The notes under the pieces are model-generated. The model did not search any database, was not told where the DNA came from, and worked only from the letters and a program-made list of their open reading frames with translations. A stretch of 29,023 nt of DNA from an uncultured Nitrososphaeraceae archaeon (GTDB lineage: Archaea; Thermoproteota; Nitrososphaeria; Nitrososphaerales; Nitrososphaeraceae), in NCBI GenBank assembly GCA_963837175.1, contig CAWIMJ010000029.1:1-29023 (forward strand), written 5' to 3'. Shown piece after piece: positions 12,771-29,023 of the stretch (its first letter is position 1; each line of letters opens with the position of its first letter). A program made the position numbers and the translations under genes.

Positions 12771-13263
12771 GCATAGTTATTTTTAAGCCTTTTTTTATCA
12801 TTACATAGGAATGGCAATTTCAAATAGCATCTTCATCTAACCAAGCATCTTCAAGTGCAAATATCTGATATCTTTCATAACTATTGTGCACTGGCCATAA
12901 TAATAGATTTGATTGCCTTGAAATGATAATCGTAGTCGGTGCAGGCTTCTTAGACCTTTAAAAAGGGAATGAGGTACCATCTATTCCATAAGTAAATAGA
13001 TATTTCTAATTTAACATTGAATCCTTTCTATTTTATTGTCTGTTTGTTCATATGTTTTCCTCAACTTTAATCTGCTCCTGTGTGTGTGAGTTGCATAAGT
13101 TGTTTATAATGATAAAATATAATAGACATAAAAATAAGGTGTATTCTAATATATTTGGCAGAATAAGAACATGCAGAGTTATACAAATGGGAAATAGCAA
13201 ACATATCATCAAATATCTTTCTCTCTGATTTGTCAAGAGAGTTTCTAAATGACTTCCCCTATT

Positions 13264-14724
13264 CTATAGAGAAGAATATATTTTATAGATTGATCCACCA
13301 TAAGTAAGAACATATAAACTACCATCATATGGGCTAACTTCTATATCAGTAATTACACCAAATCCTTTTCCAAATATTGTTTCTTGCATTTCATCTGGAG
13401 TATCTGCAATTTTATCTGCAAGAGGACTACCAGCAGCAAACAACAATCCTGTTCTTTCAGGATTTAATTTAAAATTATACAGCCAGCCAAGATTAGTATC
13501 ACCTATGAACATAGTATTTTGGTATTGTTTTCCTAATTTATCGGAGTTGAGAAATTTAAGTGCAGTTACACCAAGTGTTGCAGTCCAAACAAACTCTGGA
13601 TCGCTATATTGGCTATTAGCACCAAAATTAACTAAATCAGTAGCAGGATTTATTGTTTTTGCTGTTGCTGCTGCTGTTGTTGTCTCTGATGAAGAATCTT
13701 TCTCTGAATCATCCTCTGAAACTTCTGTAATTGCATCTTTTACAAAACCTTCAATCTTTGAATATCCACTATTAAATCCTGGTTCAACTAGGTTAATTTC
13801 ATCTGCAAATTCATGACCATTCTCTGTATCCCATAATTTTCCAGTTATAGGATCAAAATCCATTCCAAAAGTATTACGTATACCATATGCATAGTAGTAA
13901 GGACTCATTGGCTGTATGAATCCTAGTGGAGGATTTAGTTGTACTTGACCATCCTGTGTCACTCTAAGTATACCACTAGTTCCATCAAGTGGTGCTCCAT
14001 CAAGAACATTCTGAGCTTGACCTCTATGACCTATAACATCACCAATACCAACGTATACATAATTATCAGTAGGGCCGATCATTACCTTACCAGCATTATG
14101 CGCTCTTTCAGCATTTTCTCTACCTGGTGGCGGGTCAGCTGGAAGATCCAAAAGTAATTTTGGATTTACTAACTGATTATCTACTAATTCATATCTGTAA
14201 AGACGATTGCCTAATACACTTTCTTCTGAATCAACATCATCACCGTCTGTTGCGCTGCTAGATTCAGTATAGTATAAGAAAACATAGGTAGTGCCATTTT
14301 CATGTTGTGATACAGCAATTCCTAGCATTCCTCTCTCAGCTAGATTAGCAACACTTACATCAAGAAGTGCTTTTGGATTTAATTGACCATTTATGATTCT
14401 CTTTACCATACCTGTATTTTTTTCTGTCACTAAAATGTCATTTGGACCTACAAATGCCATACTGGTAGGATGGTCAAGTCCAGTAAAGATCTGTTCTAAG
14501 TTTAGATTAGCATCATTAAGTGTAGGTCCTTCTGGGAGAGGTTTAGACTTTGTATTATGAATTGTAGTAGGGATATCATCTGTAGAACCAGTACTAGTGC
14601 TAGAAGAAGAATCAGAAGAGCTAGAAGCTTGTGCTAGATTTATTATTGGTAGGAAGCTTAGTATTAAAATTAAAACTAAAAGTAATAGAAAAGATATAAT
14701 GATGTGACCTTTTATATCTCTCAA
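13264..14724 (-). CDS. Secreted PQQ-dependent sugar dehydrogenase (GSDH family), intact
   Basis: Signal peptide; PTSMAF, ERGMLGIA, HNAGK, YAYGIRNTFGMDFDP, LWDTENG, DEINL, GFGVITDIEVSP motifs. Confidence 0.9.
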   Translation of the reverse strand: MRDIKGHIIISFLLLLVLILILSFLPIINLAQASSSSDSSSSTSTGSTDDIPTTIHNTKSKPLPEGPTLNDANLNLEQIFTGLDHPTSMAFVGPNDILVTEKNTGMVKRIINGQLNPKALLDVSVANLAERGMLGIAVSQHENGTTYVFLYYTESSSATDGDDVDSEESVLGNRLYRYELVDNQLVNPKLLLDLPADPPPGRENAERAHNAGKVMIGPTDNYVYVGIGDVIGHRGQAQNVLDGAPLDGTSGILRVTQDGQVQLNPPLGFIQPMSPYYYAYGIRNTFGMDFDPITGKLWDTENGHEFADEINLVEPGFNSGYSKIEGFVKDAITEVSEDDSEKDSSSETTTAAATAKTINPATDLVNFGANSQYSDPEFVWTATLGVTALKFLNSDKLGKQYQNTMFIGDTNLGWLYNFKLNPERTGLLFAAGSPLADKIADTPDEMQETIFGKGFGVITDIEVSPYDGSLYVLTYGGSIYKIYSSL

Positions 14725-14810
14725 CGAAAAAGATAATGTCTTCTATGATTTAAAGTTATAAGACAAAGAAATATTGTTCTTTATTATATATATTGGTGTT
14801 ACATGGCAGC

Positions 14811-14844
14811 GCCTTGGTAGCTCAGGCTGGCATAGCGTTGACTT
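14811..14844 (+). tRNA. 5' half of a tRNA-Thr-like gene (positions ~1-33)
   Basis: GCCTTGG TA GCTC AGGCTGGCA TAGC G TTGAC TT: acceptor strand, U8, D-arm with GG (one D-stem mismatch) and anticodon 5' strand. A TATA-like TTATATA lies at 14784-14790. Confidence 0.7.
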
Positions 14845-14927
14845 TAATAGAAAGACATAAGGTCAAAACCTATCTATGGCCAAATGCTCCTCCTGTACCG
14901 AAAAGATAAACATGAGCTTCTAAGAAA

Positions 14928-15191
14928 ATGAATATCTTAATGGCAGAGCAAACTCACCGCTCTATTAAACCATCACTATTAAAAAAGACTGAAATGGACT
15001 GGTTTTCAGGAAAAACTCAACTGTCCACATCTTATGAATATAAAATAAAGAGCATAATAAAGAGAAAAATAAAAGCATTCAATGAGTTTGAATTACCTTT
15101 AATTTTAAAAAGTGGCTTGTTTCCACAGGCAGCAAACGTTGCTATGTTTAAGAACCATAATGAGAGCATTGATAATTCGTCTTTTGATTAA
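14928..15191 (+). CDS. Small basic hypothetical protein lying between the two tRNA halves
   Basis: 87-aa Lys-rich ORF (LLKKTEMDWFSG...YEYKIKSIIKRKIK...ELPLI). After its TAA the frame stays open to 15389. Confidence 0.6.
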   Translation: MNILMAEQTHRSIKPSLLKKTEMDWFSGKTQLSTSYEYKIKSIIKRKIKAFNEFELPLILKSGLFPQAANVAMFKNHNESIDNSSFD

Positions 15192-15264
15192 TCTAATTTA
15201 AGCCTAAAAGAAGAAGAAGAGATTTGGGCGGAATTTGGACAAGGAAATTTGATTAATGAATTAA

Positions 15265-15295
15265 GACTTGGTAAGGCAAGGTCCCGGGTTCAAAT
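15265..15295 (+). tRNA. 3' part of a tRNA-Thr(GGT)-like gene, truncated after the T-loop
   Basis: GAC TTGGTAA GGCAA GGTC CCGGG TTCAAAT; anticodon GGT at 15270-15272. The expected CCCGG CCAAGGC is absent. Confidence 0.72.
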
Positions 15296-15716
15296 GTTAC
15301 AACATCTCATGTCAATGCACCAACATCTTACATCCAATAACGAAAATAATTCTTATGCTGGAACGTTATTAGGTTTCAAGCAGCCTTAAATAGGCGGCAG
15401 GTGAACCCCTCTAATGCAGGGACCTAATCCCACCTAACGCATGCCAATTTTGTCCCTTCACATATAAATGGTAAAATGAGCAATCTATAAATTTTATAAT
15501 TTTTTATATTATTGTGAGTTGTCTTCAATGATAATAGAGCGATATCGGAAAGCCTTTAATTCTAGCATTACTAATCTAATTTAGAATCCTTTTTTCATAG
15601 TGATTTCATTGCGGAGACCGACGGGCCCGCTAATTACACGGGTTCATGTTATTCTGTTCAAGATTGTATAATTGCTACTGTAGCTAGATGTAAAAGGAGA
15701 ATGACAAGATAATGAA

Positions 15717-16141
15717 ATGCCAACTAGATTAAGTACCACAATTAGAAATATTACAACATTGATACCTAATTCATCTAATTCGAAACTTGCCAGTGAATTT
15801 TCTGAATATATGAAGACTAACTACAAATCCGAAAAATATCAAAATAATAACCTAAAAGCAGTTATTTCTTTTGCCAGATTTCTGGGTTGAGATATTACTT
15901 TCTATGATATTCAGAAAAAAAGACCAAATTCTAGCATTTCTAGACACAAAGATAAAACGTTCAGACATAGATGCAGACAGAAAATGGATTATTACATGGA
16001 ATGATTATCTTGGAGGAATCAAATATTTTATGCGATGGCTTTATAATCAAAAAGGCAATGATAAGAAAAGGCTAAGAAAATGAACCGTTAGCACCTACAG
16101 ATTGGGAAACTCCTTCATTTATCAGAATTAAGAAAAAAAGG
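15717..16141 (+). pseudogene. N-terminal remnant of a tyrosine recombinase/integrase-like gene
   Basis: MPTRLSTTIRNI...EFSEYMK...SEKYQNNNLKAVISFARFLG*...DQILAFLDTKIK...KWIITWNDYLGGIKYFMRWLYN...DWETPSFIRIKKK. This looks like an integrase SAM-like core-binding domain, with a stop at 15888, two frameshifts and no catalytic domain. Confidence 0.65.
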
Positions 16142-17957: not shown

Positions 17958-18941
17958 GTGCAGATTACAGAAGATAGAAGAAAGCGGGTAATAGATCTAT
18001 ATTTTAACCAGCACAAGACTTATGCTGAAATCGCAGAAATAGAACACATCTCACCCCGTGACATATATGCTATCGTAAAGGAAGAGAAAGATAGACGACT
18101 GCAATATCAACACCAACAACAGCAAGAAGAAATATCTAGTAAGGCCTACAAATTATTTTCTGAAGGTAAGAAACCTGTAGAAGTAGCCATAGTACTAAAC
18201 CTAAGAGAACCAGAGGCAACTAAATACTATAGAGAATACTGGAGACTAAAACGACTAGATAAACTCATTTTCATATTCAAAGAGACAAATGGTAAACTAG
18301 GCCCATTTTTGAAAATATACCGCCTCATAAAGGAAAAAGGTATGACTATAGACCAAGTAGTTAATGCTGTAGATATTGCTATTCATAAACTTCCTTATAT
18401 GGAAAGTCTCTATGAACAACTAAAAGAGCAGGTAGATAACATGCAACGTACAAGGCAACAATCGGAGAACTATTTGCATAACTTGAAGGAAGAAATAGCA
18501 AGCTCCAAGGAATTACTGAAGTCCTATACCAACTCCTGTGAGCGCAAAAGACAGGAAGCCAAAACTCTCAATAATGACATATCAAGATTAGAGACTGTTA
18601 TTAGTCGATTCAAGAGCAATAACGAAGAATATCTTAAGATCGAAAAGACAGTTGAATAAAAGGTGAAAAGCGTTTTAACAGATAATAAACAAATATTGCA
18701 ATTCGCTCTTGCATCAGTAATTGAAGCAATAAGAAGAAACCCTGACAAATACAATAATCTTCTAGCCATTAATATATCATCATCAATAATACCCACACAA
18801 GAATCGCTACCATTGCATAATGAGGATTATAAGACCATGATACTAGAAGAATCTGACAACCTTTACAATGAGCTAATAAAAGAACTGGTAAATAGAATTA
18901 TGTCTGCTGTAAATCCTCCTAAGACGTCTTTATCATCATGA
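17958..18941 (+). pseudogene. HTH plus long coiled-coil hypothetical protein, one in-frame stop
   Basis: ORFs 17958-18659 and 18663-18941 share a frame (EKTVE*KVKSVL). Two HTH-like segments (KTYAEIAEIEHISPRDI; KKPVEVAIVLNL) precede a heptad-rich region. Confidence 0.72.
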
Positions 18942-19567: not shown

Positions 19568-19998
19568 TTTATGGACAAGGTCTTAATAATTATAAGAATA
19601 CTCCTTTATTATCAGATGACATAGCTCATATAATATTATATAATCCATAATAACACCTTTTGAGTCTTGACTTACTTTTCTAAGGATCACTATATCCCCT
19701 GTAAAGGTGCCTTTAAAGATATGCTGTCAACTGACTGCCATTTCCTTTTGATGTCTTTGGTATCATAGTATATCTCCAATAATCTAATCCACAGTTTATG
19801 ATATATATTCAAAACAAGCCATTCCTGAAACTATCTGTATATTTAGAAACAGAACCATAGTTCATTTGGAATATGTCTTATTGTTCCAAGCTTTTTCCTT
19901 TCCTGTAAGCACAAATCACAGTTATAACAAAAAAGCATCAAGCTATATACTTATGTGCAATTACTTCTATTGTACATATATTTGGGATAGGCTCTTAG
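19568..19998 (-). mobile_element. Degraded IS5-family transposase fragment plus two IS-end-like motifs
   Basis: Minus strand 19830-19696 reads FQEWLVLNIYHKLWIRLLEIY...KWQSVDSISLKAPL (first DDE Asp region), preceded by YGS. Related end-like motifs TTTATGGACAAGGTCTTA (19568) and TTTGGGATAGGCTCTTA (19981). Confidence 0.68.
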
Positions 19999-20681
19999 TT
20001 TAGTTGTAATTATGAAATGACTACTTTGACAGCTCTGTGGTGGTGTATTAGTCCTGTATATGGTAACGTTGATAGATATGAGCAGTCGCCAGTCTAAGTA
20101 ATGAAAACTTATTATGACATACTTCATGCCATCTGGATCTTCTATATCTATTTGCTTACCTAAGGTGCTTACCTAAGGCATTGACAATTTGTCTTTGTTG
20201 CAGCATGTAATCTATTTTCTTTACAATAAAAGCTATATCTTTTGTAGTAGACTTTTCTATCTGATATTAGAGAGGATTAGATTATCTCCAATTAATACAG
20301 ATAAAGATGGCAATGTCACAGACGGAGTATCACACAAACGATTCCTTGTTCTGAGAGTGTTATCAAATAGGTTCTAGAAGTTATGTTAGACAGAGAATAC
20401 TAACTGTTATTTGTTAACAGGTGGTAGCACGGTAAAGATAGATAGTTCTCTCTCAGATGCCTCCTATAACTAATCCAAAGCCAACTATTCTAACAGTAGC
20501 CCTAGTGTTGCTCCAAACATGTATAGCCAAACCCTCAGGCATCATCTCTTGGTAGTCTTTCATTTCCCTATGAAACACTGATATGCATATGGAAATCGTT
20601 ACTACAATTGTATTGTTGGGACAGTTTAGCTTTCAAGAAAGGAGGATAAGATAAAAGATAGTTAGATTAAGATTAGGTCAA

Positions 20682-21533
20682 TTAGATGTATACATTGGCT
20701 TTAGTTAAATTCGTTAATGCTGTTAATACATTAGGTAGTGGTTGAATGCTACTCCAAACAATGAGAGTATGATTACCAGTCTTATTATCAGGCCAGTATT
20801 TACCAGGACAATCTGAACATGATGCGTAAGTAAAGTTATGTGTAGATTCTATCTTTAATCCGTTCCTTGGGAATTCCTGCATATAGTAAGCCAAATTACC
20901 TGGATGTGTACCGCCGTCATTATCATAAGGATTAGATGTCTGTTTAGTAGGAGTATAGAATGTTCCAACTACGAGAGAAGAAGGTTTAGCAGCTTCAGAA
21001 GTTACCTGAAGAGAACCTACAGCCCAAGGAGAATCAGCAACAGTTATCTTATGAATTCCTGGGGCTAGACGAAATTCTTGTGTGTTTGTAGCATAGTCTA
21101 AATTAGTACTGTTCTGAGTTCCTACAATAAATGTATGAGGATGTGGTATATCCCAAGGAGCGTCAGCGTTGTGTATTACTACACCAGTACCATTAGAAAC
21201 AATTGTATTCTTTGGTACAAAATACGGATTTCTATCTGAAATAAGCTTGTGTTTCCCTGTCTTTATATCTTCATGTAGTTCGTTTGCAGCGTATATTATG
21301 ACTGTCTTTACTGTAGCAGGGACCTTCATAGTCTCTGTGCGATATATAGAAGATGCAGAAGGTAGTAGTGGTGGTCCTGTAGTAGCTGAAGGGTTTGAAG
21401 GAAGAGTATTAACAACTGGAATTGACTGCCAAGAAGTTATATTAGATGCTAATCCTGCTTCTTGTGCTGCAAGAATAATCAGGCCAGCTAATGACAATGC
21501 AATAGCGATAATTATGATAATTCTTTTGTTCAT
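20682..21533 (-). CDS. Secreted/anchored hypothetical protein with possible cupredoxin-like domain
   Basis: Likely start at MNKRIIII (ATG 21533) rather than 21683. FVPKNTIVSNGTGVVIHNAD...HPHT...LAPGIH...PWAVGSLQV, followed by a CxxC-containing C-terminal domain. Confidence 0.65.
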   Translation of the reverse strand: MNKRIIIIIAIALSLAGLIILAAQEAGLASNITSWQSIPVVNTLPSNPSATTGPPLLPSASSIYRTETMKVPATVKTVIIYAANELHEDIKTGKHKLISDRNPYFVPKNTIVSNGTGVVIHNADAPWDIPHPHTFIVGTQNSTNLDYATNTQEFRLAPGIHKITVADSPWAVGSLQVTSEAAKPSSLVVGTFYTPTKQTSNPYDNDGGTHPGNLAYYMQEFPRNGLKIESTHNFTYASCSDCPGKYWPDNKTGNHTLIVWSSIQPLPNVLTALTNLTKANVYI

Positions 21534-21807
21534 TATTGTAATACTATGATTCATTTGATTATTATCTATTAGAGGCATGCTACTAAATACACAAGTTAAT
21601 TTATTTCTGAATATTATACAGAGAAGACAGAAGAGGATGAAAAACAACCTAAATAATGCCGTCAAAGCTTTCACACTTACCAATATTACAACAATTCCAA
21701 ATTCTGTTAATTGTGGATTGGTGAAGAGGGATATCTTCTAGTACAAGAACATTGTTCTTTACCACGTTAAGGTAATATATGAGTTAAGCTATATATAACA
21801 TAAAGAT

Positions 21808-22227
21808 ATGCAGCTGAGAAATTCAACTTCAGGATTAAGAGTTATTGTATTATCCATTATTGTATTAATAACCGGAATATCTTTTATTCCCACATTACAA
21901 ATTGGAGTCCAAGGTCAACTGCAACAGCAAGATTCAGCCACTCCTGTTATATCACCTACTCCTACTACACCACCAACTAGTACTGCTACTACTGATTCTA
22001 CTACACCATCACGACCCAATCTAAATGATGATCCACAACAAATACTAACTGGTACTACCGCTAATACTGTGCAATTTACCCAATCTCCTCTTACTGTGCA
22101 ATTTCCCCAATTTCCCCAATCTCCTCTTACTGTGCAATTTCCCCAATTTCCCCAATCTCCCCAATCTCCTCTTACTGTGCAATTTCCACCAGGAGTAGTG
22201 TTACCGCTAAATCATCCTCCTCAATAA
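21808..22227 (+). CDS. Secreted P/T/Q-rich low-complexity protein
   Basis: Signal peptide, a Thr/Pro-rich linker and TVQFPQ(F/S)P repeats. Confidence 0.65.
   Translation: MQLRNSTSGLRVIVLSIIVLITGISFIPTLQIGVQGQLQQQDSATPVISPTPTTPPTSTATTDSTTPSRPNLNDDPQQILTGTTANTVQFTQSPLTVQFPQFPQSPLTVQFPQFPQSPQSPLTVQFPPGVVLPLNHPPQ
22066..22187 (+). repeat. Nested coding tandem repeat (27, 36, 45 nt units)
   Basis: ACTGTGCAATTT starts at 22066, 22093, 22129 and 22174. Confidence 0.92.
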
Positions 22228-22384
22228 TGTCTTCTTTTGGAAATAAACTCATCTAATAATTATCAACCTCTTTTCTATTACTAGTAAGAATGAAAGCACC
22301 ACCAGTCAGACAGGGAGGTTTATTTATCTTCTTGAGGGGCCTAAATTATTATTGATGCGATTTTATACAATGACAAAGTATGTT

Positions 22385-22434
22385 CTGGGCCTATTTATCG
22401 TGTCAAATTTGCTTCACATCCCGACAGGCCCGCT
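22385..22434 (+). repeat. Dispersed repeat copy ending in a tRNA-3'-end-like sequence (putative att remnant)
   Basis: GTGTCAAATTTGC TTCACAT CCCGA CAGGCCC GC; CCGACAGGCCCGCT matches 15618-15631 at 13/14 positions. Confidence 0.6.
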
Positions 22435-22483
22435 CCATTATTAGTTCTTTTATGTGGGTCCTACTAAAAGGTGTAAACAAAGA

Positions 22484-22885
22484 GTGAAAGTAGAACAGTT
22501 AGAATCAGGCCCAAATCCTTGCACACTGTATCTTTATGCCTTGAGATGGCCAGTTACAAGAGATAAGTATCAGAAAAGACGTGGCAATTTCTTTGACTTT
22601 CTTAAATTGGAAGATAGTACAATATAAGATAAAAGTAGAGTCTTTATTGAAATGGCAAGAAAAGATATCAATTGGACTTTTAGCAATATCTTAAGGTTTA
22701 TTCAATTTCAATAAAGTAGGGTAATCCAAAAGGAAATAAGTGGAGCAACTGTGAGAAATTATGTAAAGAGCATTAAACTATTTTGCGATATGGCTGATTT
22801 ACCTGTTGCATGGAAGAAGATTACTCGTGGACTTCCGAGAGGGAGGCGATATGCCGATGATAGAATATCGACACTTGAAGAATTA
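22484..22885 (+). pseudogene. N-terminal remnant of a second tyrosine integrase-like gene
   Basis: GTG 22484...YLYALRWPVTRDKYQKR...I*DK...FIQFQ*SRV..KEISGATVRNYVKSIKLFCDMAD...WKKITRGLPRGRRYADDRISTLEEL; two stops and no catalytic domain. Confidence 0.7.
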
Positions 22886-23406
22886 GAGCAGAGTACGGCT
22901 CGCATATCCGAGCTGGTAGGTGCTATCAAGACTTACTCTTATATGCATAAAGCACGCATTCAGAATGTTGATGTGCATGAAGGTAATGAAAGTACTTTAA
23001 CTATTCTTCATCACAAAATAAAAAACGGGATAGAAATTATCCGTGAATATGATCCTCTTTTACCTCAGATCACTGTCTATGGAAGTGAACTCAATCAAGT
23101 GTGGACTAATTTAATTGATAATGCTGATGATGCAATGAATGGCAGAGGTAAAATATGGATTAGAATAAAACAGGACTTACAATCATGTAATAATAGAAAA
23201 TGCCTATGATGGTCCTGGCATTCTACTGCTGAGATACAACCACAAATTTTTGAACCATTCTTTACTACAAAAAGATAGGTAAAGGAGGACTAAATTTGAA
23301 CGTCAGTTACCGTATTGTAGTATAAGATCATAAAGGAAACATCAGTTTCTCTTCCAAACCGGGAGATACTTGCTTTCAAGTTCGAATACCTATACATTTT
23401 TCATGA
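22886..23406 (+). pseudogene. Histidine kinase C-terminal (HATPase_c) remnant
   Basis: RISELVGAIKTYSY...VDVHEG...GSELNQVWTNLIDNA (N box), then frameshifted DGPGI (G1), IFEPFFTTK (F), GKGGL (G2) and HKGNISFSSKPGDTCFQVRIP. Confidence 0.85.
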
Positions 23407-23455
23407 TTCGAGAATCTTAAAGCACATAAGACAATGTTATAACTGAATAATTAAA

Positions 23456-24602
23456 TTGAGTAACGTAGAAAAAGAACGTCATGCTACATGGTTGGAGCTT
23501 TTTTATGACCTAATCTTTGCCGGTTGCTGTTTCTCAGATAGGCCTCAGTCTGGATACTAGTAATACTTCTATTACAGCATTCCTTGGAACGATATCACTG
23601 TTTTTTCCTGTTGTGTGGGCATGGTTGGGTGTTACATTTTATGCAACCAGATTTGAGACTGATGATTTAGTACATCGTCTACTGGTACTTTTACAGATGG
23701 TTGGAGCAGCAGCTCTTACTATTAACATACATGGCGCCTCAGGTGAGACATCAGGTAATTTTGCAATTTCATACGCTGCAATCAGGGCTTTTCTCGTAAT
23801 CGAATACATACGTGCAGGACGTAAAATACCAACTGCTCGTACACTTGCAAATAGATATGCACAAGGGTTTTCAATATCTACTATATTATGGCTAATCTCA
23901 GCGGCTGTTCCTATACCTATACGTTTTGTTCTCTGGGTATTAGCACTTGCCATAGATGTTTCAACTACAATCTTAGTTGGACGAAAGCACCTACGTTTAG
24001 CTCCAAATATTTTTCATTTACCTGAGCGAATGGGATTATTCACTTTAATTGTACTTGGAGAAACCATATTTGGTCTTATTAGTAGTCTATCAGGCCATAA
24101 ATGGACTATAGAATCTACAATATCAATAGGAGCTGGATTGGGAATAGCTTTTAGCCTTTGGTGGATATATTTTGATAGAGTTGATGGCTCTCCAATTCGT
24201 GCCTTTCGTGAAAAAGGTAGGATTGGAGTTTATACAACGTGGTTATATATTCACTTTCCCCTAGTTGTAGGCCTTGTGACTACCGCAATAGGTATAAGAG
24301 ATATAGTTTCATCTGCTGAAAATATACCTTTATCTTATACAACTCAATGGTTAATCTGCGGTTCCGTTTCGCTATGTTTATTCTCAATTGGTATTATCCA
24401 TCTTTCTATAGCTAGTGCAGCAGGTGAAAGGAAAGTAATGATATTGTATTTTTATAGATTTATAGCCGGACTTGCAATTATAACTATTCCCGTATTTACA
24501 ATTAGGATTTTACCATCGGTACTAATCATGATTATAACTATAATTTGCATGATGCAGATAATACTTGATTTAAGACATCATCCTCACCATCGCATTTTCT
24601 GA
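23456..24602 (+). pseudogene. ltrA: Low temperature requirement protein A family membrane protein, frameshift near 23520
   Basis: TTG 23456 gives ERHATWLELFYDLIFA, out of frame with VAVSQ...; the ERMGLFTLIVLGE and LWWIYFD motifs follow. Confidence 0.85.
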
Positions 24603-24879
24603 AATGCTACTCTAAAGACTAAAGCCAAAATCAGTTTTTACCAATAGCTATTTTTGATTTCTGGCTCAAAATCTCTCACTATGTTGATGGTAAGGAAAGT
24701 AGATAATATCTACATTATTTTCTTACTCTACTTTAGGTTGAACTTTGGGTTTAAGCTCCTCATACCTACTTACTCTAGAAATAAGATCCAGTTTCTCATA
24801 TTGTTAAATCAATCAAAATTACTACCTGTATGTATCTTTCACTTCATGTACTAGTTTGACCTAAGGCAGGTGTTCATTT

Positions 24880-25128
24880 CTAGCTAGGAGTCTTGTTATA
24901 TGAATCACATCCATTACACTGGAATATGATATCCTGGATAACTACGTTGTCTCCCAGATTATTTGCAAGTATATGGCCACAATTACCACACAAAAGTCTT
25001 CTATTCTCATCTCTTTCTTCCCCGTCTCCAACAAGATAAGGTTGGTCCCCTAGATGTTCAGACTTTTCGTATACGGTAACGGTACCAGATTCAGGCTTGG
25101 GAACAACTTCTAATCTTATTTCTCTCAT
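24880..25128 (-). CDS. Small zinc-ribbon protein (CxxC...CxxC)
   Basis: LLCGNCGHILA...FQCNGCDSYN; likely start at MREIRL. Confidence 0.7.
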   Translation of the reverse strand: MREIRLEVVPKPESGTVTVYEKSEHLGDQPYLVGDGEERDENRRLLCGNCGHILANNLGDNVVIQDIIFQCNGCDSYNKTPS

Positions 25129-26316
25129 AAATATCAATATTATAGCTTGAATTTACAGGTTTTGATTTGTCCATCAACCGAAATGCTGGATTCAAGATAA
25201 TCAGCTAGATTACCAGTAGATCTTATTTTTAAGCATATAATTTATATTAAAACTTCGAATAGATATGGTTCACTTCCCGAAGCTGATTTTGCAAGGCGTT
25301 CCATTTTCTTGCAACTACTGATCAATTTTTTATGGGCAAAATTAGCTTTATGATTATATGATTTGAATCATAAGGAACTAATCTTATTAATTATCTTACT
25401 AATATCCTAATATGGTATATTTATTACTTCATGGATAAAGCCATGGTCTCAAAAGTCGACTCAAAACAGGTATTACAAAATTAGAGAGCAAAACTGCCCG
25501 AATTGCAATAAAAATGATGCAATTAGCTAGGAGTGATAATTGCCGCATACTACTTCTAGTTTCAATTCCAAACAAATTCACAATGTGAAACAAGTGGCTT
25601 TGCACGCTGTGTGAAGTCTGGTGCAATAACATTCAGATCGGGAGGAAGCGGGTGATCATTGAGTAGCTGATGATTAACAATACTTCATTATATGATTATA
25701 TGTAAAAGGCATAATAACCAAAATTCCTCAGTTTTATTTCTTTCTGTGAACATTAGATATCGCAATTATATTTATATGAAGCAGGATAAGAATTATAATA
25801 CTTTTCAGATAACCAATTCTATTTTCAATTGTTAAAAGTTGAAGAATGTCTAATGAAAATGTAACCTTCTAAGTATGACAATATTGAGTATATACAACAA
25901 AATCCTCATTTGGATTTACTCTCTCTTGTCATCCTTTCCTAAATCCATAGTAAGTCCTATTGCGGACATATTACCAGCTAAAGGTACCAAAGTTCGTCTT
26001 TGCTAATGATCTCTCACAGCAGCATGGCTACAATCGACACTACTATTACCACCATTAATTCCTGGAACTTGCATAATAACTACATTTGAAAACATTGTAT
26101 AGCATCTTTCTGATATCAGCTGAGGTTTATTACAGTTAATGATAGCTATCTGATGAATGAGTAGGTACGCTAATTCAACTAAAGATAGCCAATCATTCCA
26201 GTTAGTATTTTAATCACTTTCTATAAGGAAATATGCTTTTACTACCATCTATTTTTGGAATGGTGGATACTTTTCAATCATAAAGCTCTTGCTCACATAA
26301 AAGAAGATGAGTTTTA

Positions 26317-26886
26317 TCACTTTGTTATTGCAAATGAATCAATCATCCTCTGTACAATCTGCAAATCGTTTTCGTAGTCTTCTTCTTTTGCAACGTATGT
26401 AATGATATATGCTTTGTCGTCTTTTATTGTCCAAACTTGCATTGTCTTTAGTCCTGCTATATTAGTAAATACTATTTTATACCCGGGAAGATCTGCAAGC
26501 GTAGTGCTATTTGATTCAAGGAGAATTTCTTCTGTGGGATTGATTTGAGTATTTGTATATTCTTCCAATGTCATGTTATGGAAAGGTAAATTCTTCACTT
26601 GTATCTTGAGGTTCTTTGCTAGTGACGTGTCGCTAAGAGGATAGAAATCAATATCAGCAGAATCTTGGAGAAAAGAGAGATCTAATCTTCCCCAACCAGA
26701 AGGATATTGGATCTGTATCCCATAAGTCGGATTTTCGTATAGGTTGAAAGTATTATTATCATTTGTTTGTGCTATTGTTATTGTTTGTTGATTTGTAAGT
26801 GAAGTTGATAATAATGAAGTTATCATGATTATTAGCAAACTAAATAGAAGAACTTTCTTCCCACAAGAGTTACAAAGTTTGATCAT
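26317..26886 (-). CDS. Secreted PsbP-related protein
   Basis: N-terminal TM segment; YENPTYGIQIQYPSGW...TTLADLPGYKIVF...KAYIITY...MIDSFAI. Confidence 0.85.
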   Translation of the reverse strand: MIKLCNSCGKKVLLFSLLIIMITSLLSTSLTNQQTITIAQTNDNNTFNLYENPTYGIQIQYPSGWGRLDLSFLQDSADIDFYPLSDTSLAKNLKIQVKNLPFHNMTLEEYTNTQINPTEEILLESNSTTLADLPGYKIVFTNIAGLKTMQVWTIKDDKAYIITYVAKEEDYENDLQIVQRMIDSFAITK

Positions 26887-27358
26887 TATGTTATTTTATA
26901 AACTGTATCTTCCTATAAAGCTCGTGTTAATCTATTGTCCACCTATATTATTATATATTAAGTGACAACAATTTATTTAGAACTCATGAAACATGACTTT
27001 TGACTATACACACATGCTCAGCGTCGGTCTGGAATTGGCTACACATTAGCTCTAATCGCAGTAGCAGCATAATTATAACAATCTTTTAGCATATTTCTAA
27101 ATAATTCTCAATATTCTTCTTTTGAAGATAGGCTGATTATAAAACTTGCTCATATTCAATTTCTTCTTTGATAAGAAGCTCTTGATTTGGAAATAGACCA
27201 CTCAAATAATCACTTACAACTACTTATTACTACTTTTCAGAATCGAAGCACCAATCAAACAGGAGGAATGATCTCCTAAACGGCTAAACTATTAATTCCT
27301 AATATATGAAGGGTGTTTGTTAATTATAGGTTTCACACAAAGGAATGAGTATTATTTT

Positions 27359-27399
27359 CTAGGCCAAAAATCTGTGTCAAATTTTATTCAAATCCAATC
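27359..27399 (+). repeat. Dispersed intergenic repeat copy
   Basis: CTAGGCCAAAAATCTGTGTCAAATTTTATTCAAATCCAATC matches 22385-22425 at 27/41 ungapped positions and contains TTCAAATCC. Confidence 0.55.
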
Positions 27400-27849
27400 T
27401 ATCCTATTAAATGTACAATTGCATCTCCATCTACATCTGAATGCTAGACAGATACATACACAAGGTAGAGAATAACGAGGAACTTTCTTACATTGCTATC
27501 AAAGCTTTCACACCAATATCGCAATAACTCCCGATTCTTTTAATAATGGTTTGGTGAAAGAGAATTATCATATATGAAATATATTAAATATAATATATAA
27601 TTCAAAACAAATTCACCATCAATATTTATTACATATACAATACCATTACTACTTAATATTCTGCATTCAAATACCATGCATTGGTAACAATTGAAAAGTG
27701 ATGATAACGGAGGCAATAGAACTGTAGCAATGATAACAGTATTGGTAACAAGCTGTAACAGATTAAGCTTCTATTAAGTATAATTAGACCTAGTAATAAA
27801 ATAAGATGACAATACTAACAACACTATAAAGGACTGTTAGAAGTTTAGT

Positions 27850-28418
27850 TTAATATGGAGTACCCTTTCCTCTTTGGTTTTTGAAGGCTTCAATATACCA
27901 TTCGAATTCATTAAGAAATCGTATGACTCTTTTGTCATACGTTGCATCCATTAATTTTCCATACTCATGAAAAGCATCTTGTACCCTTGATATTGGAAAT
28001 GATGAAGATATAGATGGTGCTCCAAGCTCTGCGAATATATGACGGAGATGTTGTGCTGCATTTATGCCACCAAAACCTCCGGGCGAATAGAAGACGATAG
28101 CAGAAGGTTAAAATAATATTCCTCTAAAAAATAATCTAGCGTATTTTTCATTGCAGCTGATGTACTATGGTTGTATTCTGGACTCACAGAAAGGTAGCCT
28201 TCTGCATCCTTATTATGTTCCTAAGGTCTATTAACTTCTCTGAAGGGTTTACCATCTCTTTCTACATCCTATCGAGTAAAGACAAGTTAAGTTCTAGAGG
28301 ATCAATAAAAAATACTACATGGTTACGATCTTTCAATTTTGTCTTCCATCCAGCGGGCAACTTTGATACCTTGCCGGTCTCGCCTAACTGATCCAACTAT
28401 TAAAGCAATTTCAGCCAT
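27850..28418 (-). pseudogene. NADPH-dependent FMN reductase (flavodoxin-like), multiple lesions
   Basis: MAEIALIVGSVRRDRQG...SPEYNHS.SAAMKNTLDY...YSPGGFGGINAAQHLR...GTPY*; about three frameshifts and a TAG. Confidence 0.88.
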
Positions 28419-28638
28419 TATTGTTTCTATTCTTGTTATTCTTGTTCTTCTATTAATATTCTATATATCTCTCCAAAATCAAACAAGTATCTCATTTATG
28501 CATTGAAGTTTTAGTCACATTTTTCCTAGGTATTAAATAAGATAATGCACATAAAAATCCTAGATGAACAATGATATCCTCATATAAATATGGCAGATCA
28601 GCCGTTTTCTTTTTAACCTATTAAGTTATCGTTAATAC

Positions 28639-28767
28639 ATGATAGAAGAAAGAGATAAGGATCTAAATAACATTGTATGTGAATACTGCGGTAAAGAGTT
28701 TGATAATAGCGAGACATTCAGGATACATATAGAGCAGGTGCACACTAGTAGCGACTCGTTTCACTAA
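28639..28767 (+). CDS. 42-aa C2H2 zinc-finger microprotein
   Basis: MIEERDKDLNNIVCEYCGKEFDNSETFRIHIEQVHTSSDSFH* has C-x2-C-x3-F-x8-H-x4-H spacing. Confidence 0.75.
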   Translation: MIEERDKDLNNIVCEYCGKEFDNSETFRIHIEQVHTSSDSFH

Positions 28768-29023
28768 AAAATATTACTGATATATATATGAATTATAAGA
28801 TGATTGTTAATCTTTACTGAATGGTTAGCTTATGGCGGTGAAACTTAGATGGCTTTAAGTGAATATTTTCCAATTTTCCTTGCAGAATTTTCCACATTGA
28901 TTTTGTATAGTTGATGCTCTTGCTATAGATAGAATATAATATAATATCTCTTATTCTAACATTATACTCGAAAGAGTATTATAGCATAGGAAAGACTACG
29001 CCAATGCTAGAGTAGATGCCTAA

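Follow-up and report, generated by a model that had tools for sequence, protein, structure and literature searches.

What interrupts the tRNA-Thr(GGT)-like sequence in the middle of this Nitrososphaeraceae contig? Two pieces of such a sequence stand on either side of a small open reading frame (ORF), and the original prediction read them either as the halves of a tRNA gene split in its anticodon arm by a long protein-coding intron or as the frame of a minimal tRNA-targeting mobile cassette. The window analyzed here is the whole of contig C29 (29,023 nt), part of a MAG of 3.8 Mb and 34% GC in 58 contigs (91% complete, 3.2% contamination). From comparisons of sequences we conclude that the locus is very probably a dead integration junction, left by an element with a tyrosine integrase of the SSV type (also termed 'suicidal') specific for tRNA-Thr(GGT).

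Two Fragments of tRNA-Thr(GGT) in the Window

An uninterrupted tRNA-Thr(GGT) gene does exist elsewhere in the same genome, at C56:65495-65568, where it was called by ARAGORN. In searches of the 3.8-Mb genome, the 5' piece (14811-14844, forward strand) matched this gene with 86.5% identity over 37 nt (E 1.4e-4), and the 3' piece (15265-15295, forward strand) with 93.3% identity over 30 nt (E 5e-4). Since both resemble the intact tRNA above chance, the positions and sequences originally assigned to them are right, and they do lie on one strand and in the correct order. The 5' piece covers tRNA positions 1-33 with 5 mismatches in 33 nt, while the 3' piece covers positions 29-60 with one A deleted. 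The pentamer GACTT, also part of the first description, is present at both junctions with a 420-nt insert between its two occurrences, and taking out 425 nt rebuilds an anticodon arm with the GGT anticodon and an A:G mismatch in the stem.

The 3' piece breaks off within the T-loop, its last bases being TTCAAAT, and is followed by unrelated sequence, so that the last 14 nt of the tRNA are absent. The 3' strands of the T-stem and acceptor stem, taken as a 19-mer with up to 3 mismatches, gave 0 matches in the window; a 12-mer and a 7-mer of the missing tRNA 3' end matched the window at chance level only, and neither a direct-repeat scan nor a search of the whole genome recovered the missing 3' exon. 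Matches to CCCGG-CCAAGGC in the window, with up to 3 mismatches allowed, did not exceed chance. The two pieces are fragments and do not form one complete split gene, contrary to what had been proposed: the 14 nt that the second piece lacks are nowhere in the contig.

Tests of the Intron Reading

A functional tRNA-Thr(GGT) gene whose anticodon arm contains a long ORF-bearing intron, cut out by the splicing endonuclease, would explain the order and strand of the pieces and the GGT anticodon arm that reappears on removal of 425 nt, and it would fit with the ORF consistently adjoining the 3' part of the tRNA in relatives. Archaeal tRNA genes with bulge-helix-bulge (BHB) introns, including those with introns that are long or at non-canonical positions, are likewise interrupted in the anticodon arm; here, in contrast, the exons are incomplete, no BHB rises above chance and the interrupting DNA codes for part of an integrase. 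ARAGORN with default settings found no tRNA in the window, and with long introns allowed (-i0,3000) it returned 0 genes on C29, the same run calling the tRNA-Thr(GGT) on C56. Rfam at E<=1 gave no tRNA match in the window, and the joined exons did not yield a complete cloverleaf with acceptor, D, anticodon and T arms. On another contig, C9, where the DNA has 66-74% GC, ARAGORN reported a 'tRNA-Glu with 891-nt intron', which we dismissed as a false call.

The best BHB candidate at the junctions is a 4-bp helix of A:U and G:U pairs with 3+1 flanking pairs. As many as 595 of 1000 random site pairs from the window equal or beat it, and neither a BHB nor a relaxed hBH motif was found above chance; the positive control, an intron-containing tRNA-Tyr called by ARAGORN on C57, has 4 bp with 7+2 flanking pairs. 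The imperfectly complementary insert ends noted at that time proved to be coding or tRNA-derived segments with no structure beyond chance. As for a split (trans-spliced) tRNA, no free 3' exon occurs in the genome, where exact CCCGGCCAAGGC is confined to the intact C56 tRNA and to an att remnant on C25 beside an integrase.

The intron reading is unsupported because no tRNA can be assembled from the exons and the 3'-terminal 14 nt, and with them the T-stem and acceptor 3' strands, are missing in all three copies of the locus found in this assembly. Together with the negative tRNA and BHB searches, the mismatched anticodon stem, the broken state of the ORF in two of the three copies and the comparative data presented below, in which the ORF demonstrably belongs to an integrase gene, this makes a protein-coding intron exceedingly improbable. 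The locus probably makes no tRNA, and the intact gene on C56 would cover decoding.

Coding Content of the Insert

The insert opens with a junction and short leader (14845-14875, forward strand), in which element sequence (TAGA...) begins about 3 nt past the pentamer. Next comes the remnant of a small zinc-ribbon gene (14876-14923, forward strand), 15 codons long and reduced by an in-frame 117-nt deletion between positions 14896 and 14897 (MAKCSSC before the deletion, TEKINMSF and a stop after it). In the elements of this kind the gene precedes int(N); at loci L031, L010 and L033 it is intact, with products of about 50 to 70 aa and a CxxC...CxxC pattern, and another copy, at one end of contig C25 of this genome, continues off the contig. 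The 87-codon ORF follows at 14928-15191 on the forward strand and represents, by our reading, the N-terminal fragment of an SSV-type integrase, int(N), with 87 homologous protein clusters. The insert had been described as holding this ORF and no other; its position and length are as given, and the zinc-ribbon remnant has to be added.

In the window, int(N) is stopped early by an in-frame TAA (15189-15191) in a frame otherwise open to 15389, and the remainder of the frame (15192-15264, forward strand) still aligns to the family region ...EEKPWAGFGDGELNSD.... This stop and the 117-nt deletion bear out the earlier impression that the copy is decayed. Within the remainder, at 15222-15241, lies an inverted segment resembling the tRNA 3' end, which encodes a W-x-x-F-G motif and agrees at 14 of 20 nt with the reverse complement of tRNA positions 52-72. 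The ORF has no usable or convincing match in Pfam, NCBIfam or PHROGs, and the AlphaFold model of the 87-aa product is helical (two-helix), with moderate confidence (pLDDT 69.6). ORFs at 15717-16083 were also considered as integrase N-terminal fragments and were dropped, as no library supported them. No Int(C) or other catalytic fragment is present in the window.

The int(N) Family Is Associated with the 3' Half of tRNA-Thr(GGT)

We found that homologs of the ORF form a sizeable family: all 87 of 87 candidate protein clusters from metagenomes and MAGs proved homologous, typically with 126-146 aa and 60-76% identity. The few records that name their source, like the related genome loci, are from Nitrososphaeraceae. 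Exceptions are one locus, whose MAG bears the label Bacteriovoracales, and a weak match in Halorubrum. In an alignment of 24 proteins, the C-terminal tails read ...LVRQRSRVQIPAKA in 19 and ...LGKAKVPGPNPGQ in 5, and both are translations of the 3' half of tRNA-Thr(GGT), in two reading frames. That homologs cross the core in two frames is a point against the integration-junction reading, since not every copy can then be a plain half of a single working gene.

For the nucleotide context we pooled 34 loci, namely 30 from two collection scans (7 genome and 23 metagenome contigs), locus L013 and the three copies of this assembly. Of these, 24 have a tRNA-Thr core-like segment, corresponding to attR, that begins at the ORF match or within about 20 nt of it. 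The segment extends to tRNA position 71 or further in 11 loci and to position 68 in 2, and ends no later than position 61 in the other 11. The full cores (11 loci) span tRNA positions 30/31 to 71-74, seven of them being 100% identical to the tRNA, which places the att core at positions 30/31-74 of tRNA-Thr(GGT), that is, 44-45 nt. In the ten loci with no core after the ORF match, the match is partial or weak or the contig ends (L048). The 31-nt piece at 15265-15295 of the window is accordingly listed by us as a relic att core embedded in the integrase gene.

The 5' half of the tRNA behaves differently from the 3' part, and the expectation that homologs would be framed by both halves failed. 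Of the 25 loci whose upstream sequence extends for 300 nt or more, only five have it, i.e., the three copies in this genome (G000), L013 (G005:C15) and L033, and all five have one common junction; both the rarity and the single junction speak against an intron. At L013 the junction is the same and the genomic context is another one, so the unit could have moved rather than merely been inherited. The median pairwise dN/dS is 0.36 among eight intact ORFs (27 pairs), five further ORFs with stops having been left out of the 13 examined. The family represents a genuine gene, copies of which often decay in situ.

Int(C), attL and the Unsplit Form

The other half of the split gene was recognized in relatives. 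Three genomes of the same genus have an intact tRNA-Thr(GGT), called by ARAGORN, at attL (G002:C73, G006:C342 and G003:C386). In G002:C73, a frame that starts from the anticodon loop of the tRNA (VRQRSRVQIPAKAHSF...) runs without a stop into an integrase. The length of this frame is 345 aa in G002 and 185 aa in G006, where the contig ends; in G003 it is interrupted after 29 aa. The 345-aa protein matches PF16795 'Archaeal phage integrase' with 29.3 bits (cut-off 27) and PHROG 5127 'integrase' with E 1.7e-10. The single protein gave no phmmer match in PDB, while a six-sequence profile of its relatives retrieved entries 3uxu, 4dks and 3vcf ('Probable integrase') at E 2-3e-4. We take these three structures to be the SSV1 integrase.

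An unsplit form was sought among longer relatives, and one was found, P0088, a partial protein of 275 aa, here compared at the protein level. Its Int(N) domain is followed by ALVRQRSRVQIPAKA as the core peptide, a linker and an integrase-homologous region, the integrase part being the SAM-like region. Two inverted segments flank the core in the int gene as well, the 3'-end-like one upstream and, downstream, a copy of tRNA positions 3-37. Because the attachment core sits within the integrase reading frame, integration splits the gene. In the integrated state, an intact tRNA stands in frame with Int(C) at attL, and Int(N) reads into a second core at attR.

Comparison with Known Suicidal Integrases

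Suicidal integrases are described in a review as carrying PF16795 and using tRNA genes as targets, with att sites of 40-50 bp, and those characterized, as given in its summary table, come from Sulfolobales, Thermococcales and Archaeoglobales (PMC8371274). The present family resembles the SSV1-type ('type I') enzymes of SSV1/SSV2, pTN3 and pT26-2 in the PF16795 catalytic domain, seen for Int(C) in the relatives, in an att core of ~44-45 nt that equals the 3' part of the tRNA and lies inside the int ORF, and in a split that puts Int(N) on the attR side and Int(C) on the attL side. It differs in its hosts, here mesophilic soil Nitrososphaeraceae, in an Int(N) domain without Pfam, NCBIfam or convincing PHROG match, and in the two inverted tRNA-derived segments around the core of the int gene; the window, moreover, contains a truncated stump and no element. 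The Int(N) family and the Int(C) of relatives thus have the anatomy of the SSV type, and recombination at the att site is predicted from it.

A further parallel is NitEve-E3, which is integrated in Ca. Nitrososphaera evergladensis as a cryptic element and whose SSV1-like integrase was split in the process (Krupovic et al., 2019; PMC6563490). By description, the host is thaumarchaeal in either case and the SSV1-like integrase is split. The term 'tRNA-Thr' is absent from the main text of that paper.

Three Copies of the Locus and the Unlikely Transposition Reading

The locus is present three times in this assembly, which has many duplications of 94-98% identity. The window segment from 13258 to 15433/15491 recurs at C45:3338-1047 (reverse strand) and at C34:93184-96616 with 87-96% identity; for the sub-block 13258-14896 the values are 96.5% (C45:3338-1700) and 92.7% (C34:93184-94886). 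The repeated block consists of a host gene for a secreted protein of the glucose/sorbosone dehydrogenase family (13264-14724, reverse strand; PF07995, E 2.7e-35), the 5' piece, the insert, the 3' piece and ~140-200 nt more. The three could be paralogs or co-binned variants. Both other copies break after TTCAAAT exactly as the window does, and both retain the 117 nt that the window lacks between 14896 and 14897. The ORF is broken by stop codons in C45 and by frameshifts in C34. In place of the last 14 nt of the core, positions 15296-15491 hold a sequence common to C34 (90.9% identity over 197 nt) and C45 (93.6% over 140 nt), which is found in diverged form (72-81%) at five metagenome loci (L046, L028, L038, L041 and L042) whose cores are also truncated and mutated.

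The copies bear directly on the idea that GACTT is a 5-bp target-site duplication made when a small transposon or MITE entered a tRNA pseudogene. Such an insertion would account for the 5-nt direct repeat around 420 nt, and transposition does happen at the locus, because a genuine IS of 1,015 nt, which has inverted ends and is accompanied by a 9-bp duplication, interrupts the 117-nt segment of the C34 copy. The insert itself, however, has no terminal inverted repeats above chance and no transposase, and its zinc-ribbon and int(N) content stands beside the tRNA-Thr core at those 24 of the 34 loci, mostly without the 5' half. The pentamers are not identical either. The 5' one is GACTT in all three copies of this assembly, whereas the 3' one is GACTT only in the window and GCCTT in C45 and C34, the two pentamers differing at L033 as well; the second pentamer is the normal start of the att core. 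Because their flanks are shared on both sides, the three copies are segmental duplicates and not independent insertions. A 420-540-nt unit at unrelated sites with other 5-bp duplications was found neither in this genome nor in the 40 relatives searched. We therefore hold an insertion of this kind to be very unlikely. Under the integration-junction reading, the pentamer G(A/C)CTT simply represents tRNA positions 29-33, retained once in each att remnant, and marks neither a target-site duplication nor an intron boundary.

Origin of the Left Junction

The left junction is where the integration-junction reading needs an additional step. The pieces at 14811-14844 and 15265-15295 would be the remains of the target tRNA, on the attL side, and the attR core, respectively, and the insert would be the right end of the element with its zinc-ribbon gene and int(N). 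A copy of the element at C25:128460-128611, in another upstream context, aligns from profile position 4 (nhmmer, E 3.4e-41). Because homology to it begins ~3 nt past the pentamer, the tRNA relic is fused to just the last ~0.45 kb of the element. The body of the element has to be inferred as lost, because the window holds no Int(C) and C25 alone in this genome shows an integrase match. The observed arrangement would follow if a deletion, illegitimate or aided by the integrase, had taken out everything between the attL anticodon loop and a point ~30 nt ahead of the zinc-ribbon gene. A later event may have swapped out the last 14 nt of the core, and the scar would then have been copied along with its flank to give the three copies. 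Its further decay would comprise the 117-nt deletion, the premature stop and the mismatched anticodon stem.

Alternatively, the left junction may be a true recombination product, in which a whole element with its left end at the zinc-ribbon gene entered the anticodon loop by means of another recombinase, the 3' piece then belonging, with the attP core, to the element's own int gene, which would be internal, decayed and never split. On the tRNA side, the break is at or next to the anticodon loop, and the cleavage sites of the SSV1 integrase are reported to border that loop (PMC8371274); the same junction occurs in two contexts, the dehydrogenase flank and L013, and the sequence past the core is conserved in several loci. 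Against this, the tRNA and the element site lack an overlap of the kind that tyrosine recombinases need, only TAA lying between the pentamer and the first element-homologous base, with no common overlap of 6-8 bp. The matching right junction, made of the element end and tRNA positions 34-74, was not found in the window, and the core here has no Int(C) behind it. We judge this history to be unlikely.

The surroundings of the 5' relic were compared as well. The orthologous metagenome locus L033 matches it at 30 of 30 nt and has the same upstream flank and junction. This flank is unlike that of the canonical tRNA-Thr(GGT) locus (C56 and G002:C73), and among the relatives searched none has an intact tRNA at it. 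Of the two readings first offered, the mobile cassette was nearer to our result: the entity is mobile and tRNA-targeting, but what remains is the terminal stump of a larger element and not a minimal unit.

Implications for Nitrososphaeraceae Genomes

The earlier observation is real though incomplete, and its interpretation as an intron is wrong, which removes a tempting false positive, as there is no protein-coding tRNA intron at this locus. For the annotation of archaeal genomes a simple rule follows, namely that a tRNA half accompanied by a small ORF reading into the tRNA is the signature of a split SSV-type integrase. The mechanism is already known, and the host group is a less studied one. 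SSV-type integrases have mostly been characterized in hyperthermophiles, with one report from Thaumarchaeota, and they appear to be common in the genomes of soil ammonia oxidizers, with tRNA-Thr(GGT) as the target.

The stumps raise the question of a function of their own. That Int(N) stumps are kept at dead att sites by some residual activity or, more modestly, that they represent an undescribed integrase family are proposals that we consider, taken jointly, distinctly improbable. The stumps and the zinc-ribbon gene could act as dominant-negative or helper fragments toward incoming elements with related suicidal integrases, and the role of the Int(N) stumps could lie in superinfection control or in assisted excision, with transcription possibly driven by the relic tRNA promoter. 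More broadly, soil Nitrososphaeraceae may harbor a large undescribed family of suicidal integrases specific for tRNA-Thr(GGT). Three segments derived from tRNA may form the framework of their ORF, and they may occur in either orientation with respect to the tRNA.

tRNA-derived sequences in and around the integrase gene

The intact tRNA-Thr(GGT) gene of this genome (contig C56:65495-65568) carries the T-loop TCCAAAT, with a C at position 55, which is normally U in tRNAs. The same T-loop is present in the 100%-identical att cores (the tRNA 3' part inside the integrase ORF) of related genomes. In the decayed window copies the T-loop reads TTCAAAT, and in other relatives it is ATCGAAT or TCGAAAT. 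We found that the truncated and mutated att cores are followed on their 3' side by a region of ~140–200 nt (window 15296-15491), which is kept in all three genome copies and in five metagenome loci (L028, L046, L038, L041, and L042). This region terminates in a hairpin and a T-arm-like GGTTCAAnTCC motif, the terminal sequence in C45 and L038 being CCCGGCTAGG, and may represent remnants of further att sites.

Additional tRNA-derived pieces are found within the integrase gene itself. In 3/3 attL loci, where the tRNA is joined to the catalytic fragment Int(C), i.e., L049 (G002:C73), L052 (G006:C342), and L057 (G003:C386), tRNA-Thr positions 3-37 recur in inverted form ~105–130 nt 3' of the tRNA, where they encode the peptide ...PRQRSTSLSYQ... 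The N-terminal fragment, Int(N), in turn contains an inverted segment resembling a tRNA 3' end (window 15222-15241), which codes for the conserved W-x-G-F-G motif. These pieces may serve as arms bound by the integrase, or they may have been left behind by switches in orientation.

Mobile elements and assembly features

In the C34 copy of the block, the zinc-ribbon gene preceding int(N) is interrupted by a 1,015-nt IS-like insertion (C34:94966-95980) with inverted ends of ~20 nt (GCTTTGTTGCACAACTCATT...) and a 9-bp direct repeat (GCTCTTATT) on both sides. Another gene, at window 17958-18659, encodes a 233-aa HTH plus coiled-coil protein and probably belongs to a repeated mobile element; it has more than 20 diverged copies genome-wide (64–85% nucleotide identity), including copies that adjoin the intact tRNA-Thr(GGT) on C56 and the att remnant on C25. 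The ORF of a proline/glutamine-rich secreted protein contains a direct-repeat array with a 9-nt phase (window 22063-22187), the repeated sequence being ...PQFPQSPLTVQF...

Window stretches 1-2177, 19993-25022, and 25950-29023 share 97.4–98.4% identity with C14:5-2181 and C25:6747-14832, and are either recent segmental duplications or strain variants co-assembled in the MAG. Contig C9 has a GC content of 66–74% in its first ~7 kb (C9:1-7000) vs. 28–39% beyond, which suggests that it is chimeric or starts with foreign DNA. The "tRNA-Glu with an 891-nt intron" called by ARAGORN (C9 3221-4198) lies within this GC-rich part and was rejected as a false call.

Reverse-orientation variants and distant relatives

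The integrase family also includes reverse-orientation variants, located in this genome (C25:120781-121755 and 120795-120837) and at L016 (G005:C25:14375-15350) and L010 (G021:C11). In two loci, Int(C) reads out of a tRNA-Thr core that is present as its reverse complement. At L010, the reading frame of the Int(N) homolog enters a complete, reverse-complemented tRNA-Thr(GGT). The flank following the C25 copy is that of the intact C56 tRNA.

More distant integrases of the same family, with 35–44% identity to the first sequence of alignment A2, are encoded at L053 (G009:C69) and L060 (G009:C1). They, too, start with peptides resembling translated tRNA sequence, e.g., ...ALDGIRTHDLRF..., and this resemblance suggests that Nitrososphaeraceae possess split integrases targeting other tRNAs.
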